Shown here piece after piece: positions 14,112 to 23,380 of a stretch of DNA of 29,347 nucleotides. The notes under the pieces were generated by a model. It did not search any database. It was not told where the DNA came from and saw only the letters and a program-made list of their open reading frames with translations. Numbering within the stretch: the stretch's first letter is position 1; every line of letters starts with the position of its first letter. The stretch comes from a virus (lineage: Duplodnaviria; Caudoviricetes): positions 1-29,347 of the IMG/VR virus record IMGVR_UViG_3300020045_006425. The stretch is one strand, 5' to 3'. A program made the translations under genes and the position numbers.

Positions 14112-15698
14112 TTAAAATGGGCAGTCTTTTAGTAAAAAATCTGCTTCTGCCAGGCTATAACCAGGCCAAGCATCAACGCCATGCGACTCAAGATATTCCA
14201 GCCAATCAACGCGTTTTTTCATTTCCTCAAATTCAGCCTTGGGGATAGTGACCATTTCAATTTTTGGTGCGCATGGCGTTTGTGCTCGTTCCGATTTAGA
14301 CGCATAATCACCGGCGTTATAAGGTTTTACGGTAACTTCGGCGTGTTTTACTTCGGCTTGCTCGGCTTCTGCCTTGCGCTTGGCTTCTGCTTCAATTTGC
14401 AGGCGCTGGGCATCCACCTTTTCTGACTCAGCTTTAATATGCGCGTCTATCCTGCTTGATACGAGATTGCTTAAGTCGTCATAATCCTTGTAAATAATCT
14501 GATTTAGGTCGCTGAATAAAAACCGATATGGCGCGTTTCCGGCCATTAAGCTCAGGTTTGATCTTATTGACCTCGCCACCGAATCAGCCTCGATTTTAAC
14601 CCTGGCGAGTTCGGCATCAACACCATCCTGAATAGCCGATAGAAGGCGCTTATTCTTCATGGCTTCCGGGAAGTTTGGCAACAAGGTAATTAACCGAATC
14701 GGACGGATTTCTGTTTCAAGTTGACTACAATGCTCAGCAAAAGCAATCTTTGCAGCGCCCATAATCGCCATCTTTCGCGCTTCTTTTTGCGTTTTAACGG
14801 CTTTTTCCTGGCTTAGTGCCAAGGCATTAAACTTGGCGGCGTATTGCTCAAGTTCTCGCGTCACTTCGCTAATTGTCGCAGTTTGGTCAATCACTCCTTT
14901 AGCCGTTGCAATGCAGCGTTTTGCCGCATCACGGCCTATTTTGCTTTCAGCCTCGGCCTGGGCGAAATCATTATCAGTAACCAAATTAACTGTCGCTTCC
15001 GCTAAAAACTTGTCGAATACGGGCCGCATATCGGCAATGTTGCACAGCGTTAATTCGCTTTTTACCTGCACTATGACGGTGGGTAAATCAATAATGGCCT
15101 CGGCTTTTTGCGCCTCTACGATTACAGCCGGAACATAATTAATCAAATCGGCTTGGAATTGCACCCATCCAGAAACTAACTCATCAAATGCGAGTTTGTC
15201 GGGGAAAACGGTCATGCTCACGGTTTTTTCAGTTGTGCCGTCTGAGCAAGTAAAAATAAGCTTTTCAGCACCGGTAACATATAAAACTTGCTGACATTGC
15301 GGCCAATGATGCTCCGGCAGTTCGTTGTTTTGCACTGATTCGAACAGCTTAGCGTTATATTGTTTACACTCCCATGCAATTGACTCATCCATTGTTAGGC
15401 CGTCGCATGATGCCGACAGGTAGCCGCGCGATACTGTTACCGGGTAGAGTTCATCGTCAATAATTGATTCTACAATTGGACGCGCCAGCGCTTCAACAGC
15501 GTGGCCTTTATCAAAAATGCGCTGGGTAAAATCATCAACCTCTTTTGCTATGCCGGTTGATTTCAGTCGCAACAATTCCGATCTTGTTGTATACGGCGAC
15601 AAGTTCAGCATTGCTGATGCTTCGCTTGCTCCGCCGTGTTCAGCTCTGAATGAGTGCCAATCGCTTGAGCCTTGCGTCAATTCGTGATGTTTTCTCAT
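14112..15698 (-). CDS. YqaJ / lambda-exonuclease-family nuclease with long coiled-coil C-terminus
   Basis: QGSSDW..FR, ASEAS, GHAVE, SASCDG, WECK and QCQQVL motifs; directly downstream of bet. Confidence 0.9.
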   Translation of the reverse strand: MRKHHELTQGSSDWHSFRAEHGGASEASAMLNLSPYTTRSELLRLKSTGIAKEVDDFTQRIFDKGHAVEALARPIVESIIDDELYPVTVSRGYLSASCDGLTMDESIAWECKQYNAKLFESVQNNELPEHHWPQCQQVLYVTGAEKLIFTCSDGTTEKTVSMTVFPDKLAFDELVSGWVQFQADLINYVPAVIVEAQKAEAIIDLPTVIVQVKSELTLCNIADMRPVFDKFLAEATVNLVTDNDFAQAEAESKIGRDAAKRCIATAKGVIDQTATISEVTRELEQYAAKFNALALSQEKAVKTQKEARKMAIMGAAKIAFAEHCSQLETEIRPIRLITLLPNFPEAMKNKRLLSAIQDGVDAELARVKIEADSVARSIRSNLSLMAGNAPYRFLFSDLNQIIYKDYDDLSNLVSSRIDAHIKAESEKVDAQRLQIEAEAKRKAEAEQAEVKHAEVTVKPYNAGDYASKSERAQTPCAPKIEMVTIPKAEFEEMKKRVDWLEYLESHGVDAWPGYSLAEADFLLKDCPF

Positions 15699-18574: not shown

Positions 18575-19009
18575 TTAGTGGCCTTTGTCCTGGAAGATTC
18601 GCGTTGAATGGAGCTTCCTTTTCCATGATTCGCCGGGTTGCGATGGTTGCGATGGTTGCGATGGTTGCGATGGTTGCGATGGTTGCGATGGTTGCGAGTT
18701 AATAAAGTCAATGAAATTATTTATTAGCACCCGCTGCTCATTGCTATATATAGAAAGATCAATAATATCTGAGCTGTTGGCCTGCTTGGTGTGACGATCG
18801 CCCTTGCCGAGCATTAACCAGTCTGTTGTGCAATCAAACAGTAGGCATAGCTTAAGCGCCGAATCGTGGGAGGGTATTTTTTCTGATCTCAACCATTCTG
18901 AAACAACAGACTCAGATTTTCCCACAAATTTAGCCAATTGCTTTTGTGTTTTAAGTCCTTTTTCTTTTTGTAGTCCTTTTAGTCGGTCTGAAAACCCTGA
19001 ATATTCCAT
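18575..19009 (-). CDS. cI: CI-like XRE-family HTH repressor lacking an S24 peptidase domain
   Basis: FSDRLK...TQKQLAKFVGKSESVVSEW...P...L...CTTDWLMLG. ATG at 19009 gives 144 aa; divergent from cro. Confidence 0.85.
   Translation of the reverse strand: MEYSGFSDRLKGLQKEKGLKTQKQLAKFVGKSESVVSEWLRSEKIPSHDSALKLCLLFDCTTDWLMLGKGDRHTKQANSSDIIDLSIYSNEQRVLINNFIDFINSQPSQPSQPSQPSQPSQPSQPGESWKRKLHSTRIFQDKGH
18636..18697. repeat. 9-bp tandem repeat GGTTGCGAT, about 7 copies, encoding (SQP)n in CI
   Basis: Six perfect units plus 8 of 9 bases of a seventh. Confidence 0.97.
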
Positions 19010-19076
19010 AAGCGGATGATACGTTAAAACGAATCCGCTATTAACGCTTGCATTTAATCCGCTATTGACTAATAAT
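19001..19076 (+). promoter_or_regulatory. OR-like operator array and PR promoter
   Basis: AATCCGCTATT at 19032-19042 and 19056-19066, AGCGGAT at 19011-19017, and TTGCAT-17-AATAAT (19048-19076) upstream of cro. Confidence 0.7.
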
Positions 19077-19082
19077 GGAGCC

Positions 19083-19262
19083 ATGAACATATTCCAGAAG
19101 TTAGCAAAAGAATACGGCACCCAGAAAAAAGCCTCAGAAGCTTTGGGTGTTCCATGCCAAACATATTCCGACTGGGCTACTGAGAAAAAAACCCCGTCTG
19201 TAAAGTGGGCCAAAAAGATTAAAGAACAGCTAGGTGTCAGCCTAGATGACATTTACGGATAA
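19083..19262 (+). CDS. cro: Cro-like HTH protein
   Basis: 59 aa: GTQKKASEALGVPCQTYSDW...TPS...KI...LGVSLDDIY; divergent from cI. Confidence 0.8.
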   Translation: MNIFQKLAKEYGTQKKASEALGVPCQTYSDWATEKKTPSVKWAKKIKEQLGVSLDDIYG

Positions 19263-19267
19263 CCTCA

Positions 19268-19459
19268 ATGGCCCAAGACTTCGACATCAAAACCTCAGTT
19301 GATGAGGAAACCCACGATGACCTCCTTTTGACGGCGCGCCAGTACGGTTTTAAAACCCGTGCGGAGTTCGTCCGGTGGCTGATAAAAAGAGAATTGGCGT
19401 GGGCTAAACCTCAATTGCAGGTTACGCGCATGCCTGGCGTACTGAAAGGGAACGATTAA
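19268..19459 (+). CDS. Small ribbon-helix-helix-like regulator in the cII position
   Basis: IKTSVDEETHDDL...A...G..TRAEFVRWLIKREL fits an RHH pattern. Confidence 0.6.
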   Translation: MAQDFDIKTSVDEETHDDLLLTARQYGFKTRAEFVRWLIKRELAWAKPQLQVTRMPGVLKGND

Positions 19460-19890
19460 GGGGGATTAGTCTCCTAAGTAGAGTTACATAGTCGCTCCAA
19501 CTCAGACTTGGACGATTAGATTTAAAGCACCAACGACTTCAGGTTGAATACGGGTTCGGGTTGGTGAGAAGTGGGGGAAGAATGAGCAAGCCCTCGTCGG
19601 TGGGAATCACCAGAAGCGAATTGATACTCGTATCGAAGAATTGAACCTCGACCTAATAGTTAAGGGTTATCAAGTCTAGATAATCAATGAGCAGATAGGC
19701 GACCAGAGCCGAGCTAGGCATCTACTATGGGTGTTAATTCTGGTCAGTGTTAGCAGAACATATTTAGTGACTAACACCCTGGAAGCATTGCTTTCTTGAC
19801 GATTCAGCTTACCCGAAAGGGTAGGGGAATCTTTACCCTGAACACTGACACTGATGCTATTCGAGAATTGGAAAAGCCCCTATCCAGGGA
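19460..19890 (+). ncRNA. Candidate large structured non-coding RNA or structured ssDNA origin element
   Basis: No ORF of 60 aa or more lies within it, and at least 9 stems are visible by eye. Several stems need G-U pairs on the + strand; there is a GAAA tetraloop and long-range 7-9-nt complementarities. Family not recognised; boundaries approximate. Confidence 0.55.
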
Positions 19891-19931
19891 TTAAATATTA
19901 CAGGTTACTTACATTTATCAGAGATATAGAA

Positions 19932-20069
19932 ATGAAGAAAGAGAAAAAAGATTCGAGATTAACAAAGAAAGAAATAGCGGAGTTAATTGAGTCGCGGAAA
20001 GGTAAGGATAACGCACTCATGGATGCTGAATACAAGTTCGGTTCTAAGAAAGGCATAAAACGAACTTAA
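19932..20069 (+). CDS. Small Lys-rich protein, 45 aa
   Basis: MKKEKKDSRLTKKEIAELIESRKGK...; ATG 19932 after AGAGA is preferred to the ORF-track start at 19854. Confidence 0.55.
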   Translation: MKKEKKDSRLTKKEIAELIESRKGKDNALMDAEYKFGSKKGIKRT

Positions 20070-20176: not shown

Positions 20177-20959
20177 GTGAAAGAAATCTCGATACAAAAT
20201 AAAAAACTGGTTATTGATATTAAAAAAACGTGGGAATCAGCACTGCTTGATTCAAAAAGCGCAATGAAAAAGGCGATTCTGACTGGCGAATTGCTCACAA
20301 AATTGAAAGAAAATACTCCACATGGAGAGTGGGAAAGCACCTTGAATGTGTCATTTGATGCCACATTTGGACGGTTTCACGCGGCAAAATTGATGCGAAT
20401 TTCGTCTAATAAGTTGCTTATCTCCGTCGCCAGTAATGGAGAAGAATTAACCATTAATGAGATGGCGAAATTGGTTTCTTCTGCAACACCAGAGCAGCTT
20501 GAAATAGTAAAACAACTCCAGGAAGTTGAAGAACTTAGAAAGATTAACGCAGAAGCCGCAAAAATAGCCAAGGCCGCGCTAAAAAATGCGCCTGAAATTA
20601 TCGAAGGCGAATTTGTCGAAGTAAAAACACCGGAACCCGCCGCAGAAAAACCAGAAAAAATCAACATTGAGCCTAAGCACATTGAAGACGACCCCAAAGA
20701 GTTGCTAATGGAAATTATTGAGCAACAAGAAATTTTGGTTAAAGAACTACAATCAGAAAATCTAAGTCTGGTAAAAATCCATGAATCAAATGAACCACTG
20801 CAACAAGCGCTTGAGGAGTTAAAGCGAGCAAAGGCCATAGGTAAAGGTTACGAGGACAGAATGTTGAGCTTGCAGAATGAGCGAAAACATTTAATGCAGG
20901 CCGCGCAACATTGGCAACGTAAATATGAAAAGCTGGTGAAATCCAATGCTACAGCTTAG
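20177..20959 (+). CDS. DUF3102-like protein with coiled-coil C-terminus
   Basis: AILTGELLTKLKE..PHGEW...A.KLMRI pattern; AAGGA RBS; overlaps the helicase start. Confidence 0.65.
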   Translation: MKEISIQNKKLVIDIKKTWESALLDSKSAMKKAILTGELLTKLKENTPHGEWESTLNVSFDATFGRFHAAKLMRISSNKLLISVASNGEELTINEMAKLVSSATPEQLEIVKQLQEVEELRKINAEAAKIAKAALKNAPEIIEGEFVEVKTPEPAAEKPEKINIEPKHIEDDPKELLMEIIEQQEILVKELQSENLSLVKIHESNEPLQQALEELKRAKAIGKGYEDRMLSLQNERKHLMQAAQHWQRKYEKLVKSNATA

Positions 20960-22433
20960 GAATTATCAGGAAAACAGCCTTGATGGCCTACGCGCTGGGT
21001 TTTCAGCGGGTCATCGTGTGCAAATGTTGTACTTACCAACAGGCGGCGGCAAAACTGAAATAGCCATATCAATGCTGGACAAGTCAGCAAATAATGGGCA
21101 TCGATGCGCGATGGTGATGGATAGGCGAGTATTGTGCGACCAGACCAGCGCAAGGCTTGATAAATACAACATTGACCACGGCGTATTAATGGCTAAACAC
21201 CCAAGGTTTTTAACGTACAAAACAATACAGATTTGTAGCGCTCAAACCCTTGAGAAGCGTCAATCATTTCCAAACCTGAAGCTATTGATTATTGATGAAG
21301 CCCACACCACGCGCAAATCGGTAGCAGAGTTTATCAAAAACAACGCACAGGTTAAGGTTGTCGGGCTTTCAGCGTCCCCATTTACTAAAGGGTTAAGGTC
21401 GATTTATACAAACGTGGTAAGCCGGTCAACCACTAAAGATTTAGTCGATTCGGGAATGCTGTCACCGTTGCGCGTTTTTATCGCTAAAGAAATTGACATG
21501 ACCGGCGCAAAGAAAACAGCCGGCGAATGGTCAACGTCCGAAGTAACCGAGCGCGGCGTGAAAATTACCGGCGACATCGTAGGGGAATGGAAGAAGAAAA
21601 CTTTTGAGATATTTGGAGAGCCTAAAAAGACAATCGTATTTTGTGCAGGGATTGCACATGGACAGGATTTAGTTGAGAAGTTTAAGGAAGCTGGATTTAA
21701 TTTCGTCTCGATCAGTTACAAAGACGACGACGAATTTAAGGCCGATACGATACGGGATTTTTCAAGGGACGACAGCAATATTCATGGCCTGATTGCCACC
21801 GATATTTTAACCAAGGGTTTCGATCAGGCCGACGTAATGATTGGCATTTCAGCGCGGCCATTCACTAAGTCATTTTCTAGTCACGTCCAGCAATTAGGGC
21901 GTGTCATGAGGCCGCACCCTGATAAATCTGATGCTATTTGGCTAGATCATTCAGGCAATTATTTGCGCTTTCAGGAGCAATGGAATGAGCTTTATTCTGA
22001 TGGCGTTAGTCAGCTTGATGACGCAGGAGAGAAAGCAAAAAAAGAACCCACAGACAAAGAGAAAGAGTCGGCAAAGTGCCCTAAATGCGGCGGACTGTGG
22101 CAGACAAACGGAGACGTTTGTACGCATTGCGGCTATACCAGAGTACGTATAAATCAGGTTATCGATGTCCCAGGAGAGCTTGAAGAAATCAAGGTTGGAA
22201 AGTCAAAAATAGCCGACAACGCAGAGCAGTTTTATCAAATGTGCTGCAAGTACGCACGAGAGCATAGCGCCCCTGATAAACAATATGGCAGAGCCTATCA
22301 CCTGTATTTAAACATCATAGGCAGCAAGCCTAAATGGGATTTTGACCGGACACCAAGCCACGATGTTTCGAGGGCTTTCATGGGTAAAATTCAGCAACAA
22401 AACATTGCTTTTGCAAAAGCGAATAAGCGATGA
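20946..22433 (+). CDS. Superfamily 2 DEAH-box helicase with C-terminal zinc ribbon
   Basis: LRNYQ, PTGGGKT, IIDEAH, LSASP, LTKGFD, QQLGRVMR and CPKC...CTHC motifs. Confidence 0.95.
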   Translation: MLQLRNYQENSLDGLRAGFSAGHRVQMLYLPTGGGKTEIAISMLDKSANNGHRCAMVMDRRVLCDQTSARLDKYNIDHGVLMAKHPRFLTYKTIQICSAQTLEKRQSFPNLKLLIIDEAHTTRKSVAEFIKNNAQVKVVGLSASPFTKGLRSIYTNVVSRSTTKDLVDSGMLSPLRVFIAKEIDMTGAKKTAGEWSTSEVTERGVKITGDIVGEWKKKTFEIFGEPKKTIVFCAGIAHGQDLVEKFKEAGFNFVSISYKDDDEFKADTIRDFSRDDSNIHGLIATDILTKGFDQADVMIGISARPFTKSFSSHVQQLGRVMRPHPDKSDAIWLDHSGNYLRFQEQWNELYSDGVSQLDDAGEKAKKEPTDKEKESAKCPKCGGLWQTNGDVCTHCGYTRVRINQVIDVPGELEEIKVGKSKIADNAEQFYQMCCKYAREHSAPDKQYGRAYHLYLNIIGSKPKWDFDRTPSHDVSRAFMGKIQQQNIAFAKANKR

Positions 22434-23380
22434 GGACAGACATAAAAACAGAACTTAAAGGCCGCTGGTCATCCGTCCTGCAATCAATCGGTTTTCCGGT
22501 CGAATCGTTAAATGGCAAGCATCAAGCCTGCGTATTTTGCGGTGGGAAAGACCGCAGCCGGTATGACAAAGCCAAAGAGGTTTTATTTTGTAATGGCTGT
22601 GGTCATCGTTACGGTGTCGAAATAGCTATGGAATACCTAAATCTATCCTACGGCGAAACCGCCCAACATTTACGACCTAATTTAAGGAATTACAAAATGG
22701 AAACAGTAAAAGCGCCCGACATTGAAAAGAACAAAGCTAAGCTACAAGCGATTTTAAAAGGGTGCGTTCGCATATCGCCGGATAACCTGGCCGGTAAATA
22801 TTTTGCAAAACGCGGAATCACAGCCACACCAACACACGATTGTTTTTTTAATCCGGTCGTTGATTATTGGCAGGATGGAGTAATGACAGCCTTACCCGCT
22901 ATCGTGTCGCGTGTTCGGGATCCAAGCGGTGAAATATCAACATTCCATATTACTTATTTGGGTCCCGACGGTAAAAAAGCCAACGTCGAATCACCCCGTA
23001 AAATACTGCCCATCATAGCGCCTATGCAGAGTGGAGCGGTACGGTTATTTGAGGCTACCAACACCGTAATTATTGCGGAGGGCATCGAATCGGCGCTATC
23101 TGCTCACATGGATTGTGGGTTGCCAGCCTGGGCAGCGATAAACGCCGGAAACATGGCCGCGCTGGTGATACCTGAGTCAATCAAACACGTTTATATTTTT
23201 GCCGATAGTGATGAGTCAATGACCGGGCAATCTGCCGCATACACACTGGCTAGGCGCTTGAAAGTGGCGGGTGGGCGCGAGACGGTAAAGGTTATTTTGC
23301 TAATCGACCAGCAGCAGGTTATCGATAGCGGACAGAAATATGACATAAACGACTACATCATCATGCAGGCGGCGGTATGA
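22430..23380 (+). CDS. Primase: P4 alpha-type Zn ribbon plus Toprim domain, no helicase domain
   Basis: HQACVFCGGKDR...FCNGC, IAEGIESALS and FADSD motifs. Confidence 0.88.
   Translation: MRTDIKTELKGRWSSVLQSIGFPVESLNGKHQACVFCGGKDRSRYDKAKEVLFCNGCGHRYGVEIAMEYLNLSYGETAQHLRPNLRNYKMETVKAPDIEKNKAKLQAILKGCVRISPDNLAGKYFAKRGITATPTHDCFFNPVVDYWQDGVMTALPAIVSRVRDPSGEISTFHITYLGPDGKKANVESPRKILPIIAPMQSGAVRLFEATNTVIIAEGIESALSAHMDCGLPAWAAINAGNMAALVIPESIKHVYIFADSDESMTGQSAAYTLARRLKVAGGRETVKVILLIDQQQVIDSGQKYDINDYIIMQAAV

Follow-up and report, generated by a model that had tools for sequence, protein, structure and literature searches.

The initiator slot of the window

In lambdoid phages, the initiator gene O and the origin occupy the slot that follows cro-cII. 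The locus described here raises the question of what stands in that slot when no such gene is found. In the window, by which we mean the whole 29,347-nt stretch of phage DNA that was analysed, cI, cro and an ORF in the cII slot are followed by a gap (19460-19931) and then by a small ORF, a DUF3102-family gene, an SF2 helicase and a Toprim_3/DUF7146 primase. The flanking features are as follows.

18575..19021, minus strand: CI-type repressor (HTH) with a short QPS repeat tail (PHROG 8, E 7.6e-14; Pfam HTH_3, Phage_CI_repr)
19011..19082, no strand assigned: cI/cro control region with a 14-nt direct repeat at 19032-45 and 19056-69 (repeat scan)
19083..19262, plus strand: Cro-like HTH protein (Pfam HTH_3, E 4.1e-07)
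19268..19459, plus strand: small protein in the cII slot, 'cII-like' by position alone (no family match; in L161 and L175, homologues with 67% identity precede the element)
19932..20069, plus strand: small basic ORF, 45 aa from its ATG, not conserved among element members
20177..20959, plus strand: DUF3102-family protein (relatives carry PF11300)
20946..22433, plus strand: SF2 helicase (ResIII/DEAD/Helicase_C), Eru1A-like (PHROG 16, E 2.6e-70; 30% identity with the Ss-VASD helicase)
22430..23380, plus strand: Toprim primase (DUF7146 and Toprim_3), Eru1B-like (PHROG 510, E 1e-49; Pfam)

These family searches bear out the context proposed in a first-pass annotation, namely a cro-cII slot ahead of a DUF3102-like gene, an SF2 helicase and a Toprim primase. 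The protein module is of the Eru1 type, in which the repressor is followed by an SF2 helicase with a Toprim protein and O/P are lacking; in most helicase relatives a ParB-like gene occupies the DUF3102 slot. The same annotation had seen neither an O-like gene nor iterons. Among 16 proteins scanned there was no match to an O-like family, and an iteron array is absent from the 20 largest repeat families shown by a repeat scan of the window. A lambda-type iteron origin was rejected on both counts. GC skew was also discarded as an origin marker, its turn near 17-18 kb being uninformative since it coincides with a change of gene direction.

From the lambdoid gene order we infer that 19011..19082 contains OR operators and the PR promoter, which would drive transcription through the gap. 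Promoter-like matches in a simple consensus scan were no commoner than in shuffles. An inverted copy of the operator-like repeat is found inside the small ORF (19973-19987, 87% over 15 nt relative to 19052-66) and a similar operator half-site at about 18346-56; both may be due to chance. Elsewhere in the window, the QPS run at the CI C-terminus is encoded by a 9-nt tandem repeat (18635-18697), and a RecE/YqaJ-type exonuclease (14112-15698, minus strand) has a C-terminal T7 gp5.9-like RecBCD-inhibitor domain (Pfam PF25708, E 3.6e-12).

The first-pass annotation had found no credible ORF in the gap, and this was confirmed. The longest stop-free frames are 50 aa on the plus strand and 67 aa on the minus strand, and none of nine frames inside the gap gave a Pfam match at E<=0.1. 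Moreover, each of the five element members described below contains 3-12 stops per frame in all six frames. A search for the remains of a decayed protein, which had been proposed as a check, found no trace of one, either by Pfam on the gap frames or in the stops of every member.

Homologues and the conserved core

Relatives of the gap were sought through the neighbouring DUF3102 gene, which as a single query gave none. An alignment of 61 DUF3102 relatives led to seven viral loci and at least one metagenome locus. Seven of eight loci derived in this way were examined (L089 is the same contig as L001), and upstream DNA was sufficient in five; the metagenome matches listed include at least one DUF3102 locus, with too little upstream DNA. 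The element was found in one of these five (L088, 70% identity over 365 nt, E 4e-46). An initial motif scan gave a single match that was judged to be chance. Further scans added L112 (members in 2/21 loci, one a repeat of L088), L116 (3/9 loci, two of them repeats) and L161, L167 and L175 (4/16 loci, one a repeat), giving homologues on six other phage contigs. Because L161, L167 and L175 are nearly identical, L161 alone was aligned. Together with that of the window there are five distinct sequences, sharing 62-88% pairwise identity (mean 73%), and their alignment fixes a conserved core, so that the borders first proposed (19460-19931) are too wide.

19489..19849, plus strand: conserved structured element (core) of about 360 nt, likely RNA (five-sequence alignment, covariation, helix map)

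No homologue was found in the 80 closest helicase loci, in 50,697 phages searched with the gap by blastn, or in a 15-genome order, and the L116 copy had no full-length match in 72,556 plasmids (one 49-nt hit, E 0.03, was disregarded). The order of a pMMO/AMO-bearing gammaproteobacterial genome, inferred to be Methylococcales, contained the element in 0/401 genomes by BLAST and 0/150 by model. DUF3102-like matches, mostly partial, occur in 48 of these 401 genomes, and none of 30 loci fetched from among them contained the element.

All four member records counted, two of them complete, contain a single copy. The slot between cro/cII and the helicase holds the element in 5/6 homologous contigs, with the primase confirmed downstream in L088, L116, L161 and L175. 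The remaining copy is in L112, a 9.6-kb fragment that contains no primase; it directly follows the terminase genes (terL) and is succeeded by a DUF5710 ORF. Between the terminase gene and this copy, a long inverted repeat with a T run was read by eye (L123:930-1000, minus strand), although it was not flagged by a separate scan; it suggests a transcript boundary just upstream of the L112 copy. Among members, the next start codon lies some 30 to 190 nt beyond the element. With relatedness of the enzymes given as pairwise identities, members share 49-51% with the window in their primases and 26-37% in their helicases; the element is about 70% identical between phages whose neighbouring helicases are only 26-37% identical.

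Consensus fold and covariation

A folding excess over shuffled controls had been expected at first pass. For the single sequence it is lacking, as the gap folded alone gave z -0.95 on the plus strand, with 17/100 shuffles equally good, and z -0.02 on the minus strand. Values were z -1.94 for the core region (19485-19860), -1.4 to -3.3 for element members folded singly and -4.45 for the best of 22 windows of 120 nt (19740-19859, plus strand). Single-sequence folding, being close to shuffles, was therefore rejected as proof of structure. At the family level the excess is present, both in consensus energy and in covariation. The plus strand consensus fold of the five sequences has an energy of -89.8 and 100 pairs, 34 of them with compensatory change, and a structure conservation index (SCI) of 0.79. 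In 60 column shuffles the energy was -38.9+-4.2, compensatory pairs numbered 10.6+-3.1 (maximum 17) and the SCI was 0.39. Counted pair by pair, 94.3% of 495 cells are paired, a value reached by 0/500 partner shuffles, and slid partners gave 30-43%. As partner shuffles can be beaten by relatedness alone, a coding control was added, in which three primase-gene slices from five related phages gave SCI values of 0.20-0.30 and 12-18 compensatory pairs. Covariation among homologues, which the annotation had named as a check, is therefore strong, on a structure drawn from only five distinct sequences, three of them close.

These data also bear on whether the region is a degenerate protein gene, or a spacer in which stems arose by chance. 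The near-shuffle folding of the single sequence is what such a region would give, but the covariation lies far above both the shuffled and the coding controls, stops fall in all frames of all members, and the element is retained at about 70% identity beside much more divergent helicases. We consider this explanation scarcely credible. The element is real: it is non-coding, conserved, covarying, single-copy and situated in the initiator slot.

The plus strand RNA that had been suggested from G-U pairs is also favoured. Among 500 cells, 64 are G-U as against 4 A-C, and the minus strand consensus is weaker (energy -69.8, 26 compensatory pairs). Moreover, with RNA energies the consensus fold attains 85-94% of the optimum in 4/5 members, compared with 48-71% when DNA energies are used, a comparison biased by the derivation of the fold with RNA energies. 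From the better plus strand fold, the G-U excess and the better fit of RNA energies, 19489-19849 is likely to be a plus strand RNA. Four RNA runs, compared at 80%, yielded no read on the element, a result that counts neither for nor against its transcription. The alternative is that the structure acts as single-stranded DNA on the plus strand, where it might serve in primase assembly or as an ssi-type site. RNA and ssDNA cannot be distinguished reliably from sequence or covariation (PMC5737381), the element is near the primase gene, and an R-loop would expose the same strand. However, 14% of paired cells would be G-T, three invariant ones falling in one 8-bp hairpin, DNA energies fit less well with the bias just given, and the element is not matched to its primase (see below). 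A single-stranded DNA site is decidedly improbable on this evidence.

Helix map

The consensus fold comprises about ten helices, which are listed below.

19491-500/19508-16, plus strand: P1, hairpin with a conserved 7-nt loop (97.8% of cells paired, 5/9 pairs compensatory)
19527-34/19560-67, plus strand: P2, stem around a conserved loop (82.5% paired, 2/8 compensatory)
19554-59 with 19838-43, plus strand: candidate pseudoknot (86.7% paired, no compensatory change)
19573..19595, plus strand: P3, hairpin with a 13-nt purine-rich loop (100% paired, 3/5 compensatory)
19598..19611, plus strand: invariant segment with the first GGGAATC copy, pairing with 19801-05 and 19843-47 (fold A) or locally (fold B)
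19614-24/19684-93, 19631-44/19670-82 and 19646-52/19659-65, plus strand: P5, long arm of three stacked helices (3/11, 6/10 and 2/6 compensatory, respectively)
19701-07/19739-45, with a G-U-rich tip at 19717-24/19728-35, plus strand: P6/P7 arm (both helices 100% paired; three invariant G-U pairs in the tip)
19747-53/19771-77, plus strand: P8, hairpin with an A-rich loop and GA before the 3' strand (100% paired, 5/7 compensatory)
19781..19796, plus strand: P9, short variable hairpin (92% paired, 3/5 compensatory)
19801..19847, plus strand: 3' domain with GATTC, a hairpin at 19811-22, the second GGGAATC copy and the 3' end (two competing pairings predicted to differ little in energy)

When the stems drawn at first pass were compared with the four homologues, four were kept, one was kept in a shifted register, three were lost and one proved to lie outside the core. 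The stem proposed at 19489-500/19508-18 survives as P1, the CACCAAC/GTTGGTG stem as P2, and the short stem at 19599-602/19608-11 is formed in full (4/4 pairs) in all five sequences. GATTC/GAATC and the hairpin 19811-22 are likewise retained, although the GAAA (GNRA) loop that caps this hairpin is found in the window's sequence and not in the homologues. The hairpin at 19781-95 is kept with its register shifted by one. By contrast, the stems 19621-26/19631-36 and 19665-71/19679-85 are not conserved, and the GGGTGTTA/TAACACCC stem, with only 5-7 of 8 pairs and no compensatory change, is outcompeted by two helices that are 100% paired. The stem at 19461-74 is the one outside the core.

GGGAATC is present in two invariant copies, either of which can pair with GATTC. 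The resulting folds A and B differ by 0.1-2.6 kcal/mol in four members; L112 fits fold B only. As the bases of GGGAATC and GATTC are invariant, covariation cannot choose between the two folds.

Comparison with catalogued RNAs

A search of Rfam 15, also suggested at first pass, returned no match: there were 0 hits in the window and four hits far below threshold (E 0.69-9.8), and none on the element in L088, L116, L123 and L126. Likeness to group I/II introns or ribozymes, judged by eye, was rejected in the absence of any Rfam hit. A c4 / P4 CI antisense RNA was rejected as well, there being no conserved targets complementary to the loops and no Rfam c4 hit, and ARAGORN excluded a tRNA or tmRNA (0 genes in five loci). 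Simple consensus scans found no promoter-like site within or just after the element, nor on the minus strand over it, and no intrinsic terminator was found in the element. No description was found in the literature searched, although a prior listing in the supplements of PMC5737381 or PMC10690425 is possible; five motifs were absent from 6 of the 9 supplementary files of the latter. Judged from its sequence and fold, the element is likely to represent a new folded RNA family absent from Rfam 15.

A probable remote member in phage PS-1

In two Pseudomonas phages the same slot is an unannotated gap, 613 nt long in PS-1 and 471 nt in YA3. A model of the 3' half built without PS-1 was searched against 42 sources (347 kb), and the PS-1 gap was the top non-member match, covering all 144 model positions on the right strand (18.7 bits, E 0.021). 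With filters off, 5/5 PS-1-type loci scored at E 0.004-0.016 and 0/6 other slots scored; these five loci are closely related and four were found with a pattern drawn partly from PS-1. In the PS-1-type loci, helices P6-P9 and the 3' hairpin are rebuilt from different letters. A whole-genome model search did not reach PS-1 at E<=0.001. The PS-1 gap is a probable remote member of the family with a weak score, and such a member in a cultured phage makes testing practical.

An exchangeable slot

The enzymes beside the slot can be closely related when its occupants are not. L087 contains an unalignable element, whilst its primase is 96% identical to that of L116 and its helicase 85% identical to that of L088. 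Similarly, the enzymes of L092 and L093 are 96% and 99% identical and their slot occupants differ. As unalignable elements adjoin 96%-identical primases, the element is not matched to its own enzymes. On these sequence comparisons the slot is filled by exchangeable modules, with no co-evolution of the element with helicase or primase, and a reading of the element as a site matched to its own primase or helicase is weakened. Non-coding, unalignable occupants of the slot are found at L087:1025-1330, L093:1330-1700, L091:1114-1400, L092:110-560 and L157:1760-2230. Those of L087 and L093 have motifs in common, and L092 carries an int-alpA RNA (561-626) besides its slot occupant. The Y family, represented by two sequences, showed no sign of folding beyond chance (z -0.3).

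Two further structured families adjoin helicase-primase modules. Betaproteobacteria-1 (RF02932) is found right after the primase stop in 8/80 helicase loci and in L083, and upstream of the helicase in 6/80 (L014:4760-4990, L033:6340-6570, L043:6313-6545, L067:985-1225, L069:2606-2890 and others). Its conservation extends about 110 nt beyond the 120-nt Rfam model, so that an orphan Rfam motif is tied to helicase-primase modules and reaches well past its present model. Family X, which is Rfam-negative, covarying and about 250-300 nt long, lies upstream of ParB-like/helicase/primase genes in 10/80 loci (L040:2429-2698, L050:2818-3052, L062:2825-3056, L072:2298-2598 and L025:23-317). Sequences resembling its 5' part are seen after the primase in L023, L024, L085, L086 and L179. 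Relative to shuffled alignments on the plus strand, Betaproteobacteria-1 has z -5.3 and family X z -5.9, with X stronger on the minus strand (z -10.0). Both belong to another deep primase clade than that of the window, they were not seen together at any locus, and profiles of the three families gave no cross-matches. At E<=0.01, 56/80 helicase loci had neither Betaproteobacteria-1 nor family X, many of these loci being incomplete.

In three integrative elements, whose helicases are 63-68% identical to that of the window, the stretch from the AlpA-like gene to the end of the primase lacks any gap of >=300 nt, and the element gave no match there; these count against an obligatory role. L176, L177 and L178 (G576, G495, G511) are integrase-AlpA-like elements with DUF3102, helicase and primase, labelled from ORF starts only. 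In enterobacterial Eru1-type phages, an unannotated ORF of ~90-97 codons lies between cro and helicase (L125:2604-2895, L159:1784-2062), followed by 160-210 nt of G-rich non-coding DNA.

A candidate transcript-dependent origin and its alternatives

By analogy with the origins of Ceduovirus or ColE1, the element may be the transcript-dependent origin RNA of an initiator-less helicase-primase phage, a tentative reading to which we give slightly less than an even chance. RNA polymerase from PR would read through the element, making the plus strand RNA part of the rightward early transcript. In the nascent RNA, the 5' GGGAATC would first pair with GATTC and refold once the second GGGAATC emerges. 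The refolded RNA might then stay hybridised to the template, or otherwise keep the DNA open. Onto this opened DNA the phage's own SF2 helicase and Toprim primase would be loaded, largely irrespective of its sequence. Such loading would explain how unrelated elements can be swapped into the slot.

The origin reading is favoured by the position in the initiator slot, the single copy and the exchangeability, by the covarying plus strand structure, by the PS-1 match and the two conserved families that flank the same module in the other primase clade, and by a similar pattern in Ceduovirus and the precedent of ColE1 and MRB plasmids. Against it stand the three integrative elements without a gap, the 56/80 loci without the other elements, the lack of co-evolution with the enzymes, the L112 copy after terminase without a primase, and a G-richness that is only mild (skew 0.11-0.16, relative to 0.08 in downstream genes; longest G run 4-5). 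Refolding between A and B is further opposed by invariant bases that show no covariation and by the fit of L112 to fold B only.

Position and exchangeability could also reflect a transcription-elongation RNA acting in cis, of the kind represented by put, EAR or conAn2, which would modify RNA polymerase early in the rightward operon and let it read through to the late genes. conAn2 is the RNA part of conAn, and in HK022 each early promoter is followed by a related copy, putL or putR. Conjugative elements carry conAn as a bipartite antitermination system (PMC8191782). The element of the window is near the start of a long operon, after cro/cII, is exchangeable regardless of the enzymes, and the 16 proteins scanned, a subset of the ORFs, included none identified as an N-like antiterminator. 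However, it is single-copy with none at the leftward operon (an HK022 put antiterminator was rejected for this reason), downstream terminator-like sites are at chance level (9 vs 10.9+-3.0), and in the other clade related elements are found equally often behind the primase and ahead of the helicase. Antitermination is accordingly plausible in outline and unlikely in sum.

The fold itself, a self-contained and closed multi-arm structure with conserved unpaired loops, would suit an RNA or RNP that is processed out of the early transcript and acts in trans, in immunity, in anti-defence or as a decoy for a host factor, with the slot as an expression site only. The changed context in L112 and the variable distance to the next start codon agree with this. 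But no conserved antisense target was found within 700 nt on each side for 14 loops in five members, one 1-nt loop aside (best matches 4-9 nt, at unrelated positions), the element is no tRNA or tmRNA by ARAGORN, and the recurrent link to helicase-primase modules is left unexplained. We regard a trans-acting product as improbable.

The transcript-dependent origin, our preferred reading, can be extended beyond this family. Interchangeable multi-domain RNAs would then replace the initiator protein in temperate phages with an SF2 helicase and Toprim primase, and the family of the window, the PS-1 elements, family X and Betaproteobacteria-1 would each supply one such origin RNA, refolding as it is transcribed and loading helicase and primase. 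This generalisation we offer as doubtful. Should the element prove not to be an origin, it would still represent a large family of structured RNA outside Rfam 15.

Comparison with known systems

RNA II of ColE1 adopts alternative pairings during its synthesis. ColE1 and MRB plasmids replicate via RNA without Rep (PMC3035462), and the window similarly has a replicon without a Rep protein, in which the role of RNA is a candidate. Unlike these plasmids, the phage has its own helicase and primase and no full-length match among the plasmids searched, and the simple consensus scan gave no promoter for a counter-transcript.

Ceduovirus origins are non-coding early transcripts of three types that cannot be aligned and yet are functionally equivalent, each supporting plasmid replication (PMC7150918). 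As in c2, bIL67 and 923, with their PE1-T transcript, the slot of the window is an ORF-free stretch filled by several unalignable types. However, the Ceduovirus origins lie between two promoters, PE1 and PE2, and need no phage proteins in Lactococcus, whereas the present element belongs to a temperate phage and lies within its cro-cII operon, ahead of the helicase and primase genes.

Of the structured motifs already named, Betaproteobacteria-1 similarly adjoins SF2 helicase-primase modules, and a short CCAG/CTGG helix context looks alike by eye; the element differs in having no RF02932 score, no profile cross-hit and a different deep primase clade. ARRPOF, GEBRO and PAGEV are replication-linked motifs of 223-349 nt on average for which RNA or ssDNA is undecided (PMC5737381). 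They are plasmid-borne, and no Rfam family matches the window or its homologues.

Lastly, the Eru1 unit of Stx phages consists of an SF2 DEAH helicase and a Toprim protein without O/P, and the accessible part of its description reports no origin for the module (PMC8044961). The window has the same protein module in the same position after the repressor, with 30% (helicase) and 29% (primase) identity. The slot of Ss-VASD differs, consisting of an unannotated ORF and ~200 nt of G-rich non-coding DNA that does not match the family of the window. Taken together, a widespread initiator-less module of SF2 helicase and Toprim primase, found also in Eru1 Stx phages, gains a concrete and cloneable origin candidate.
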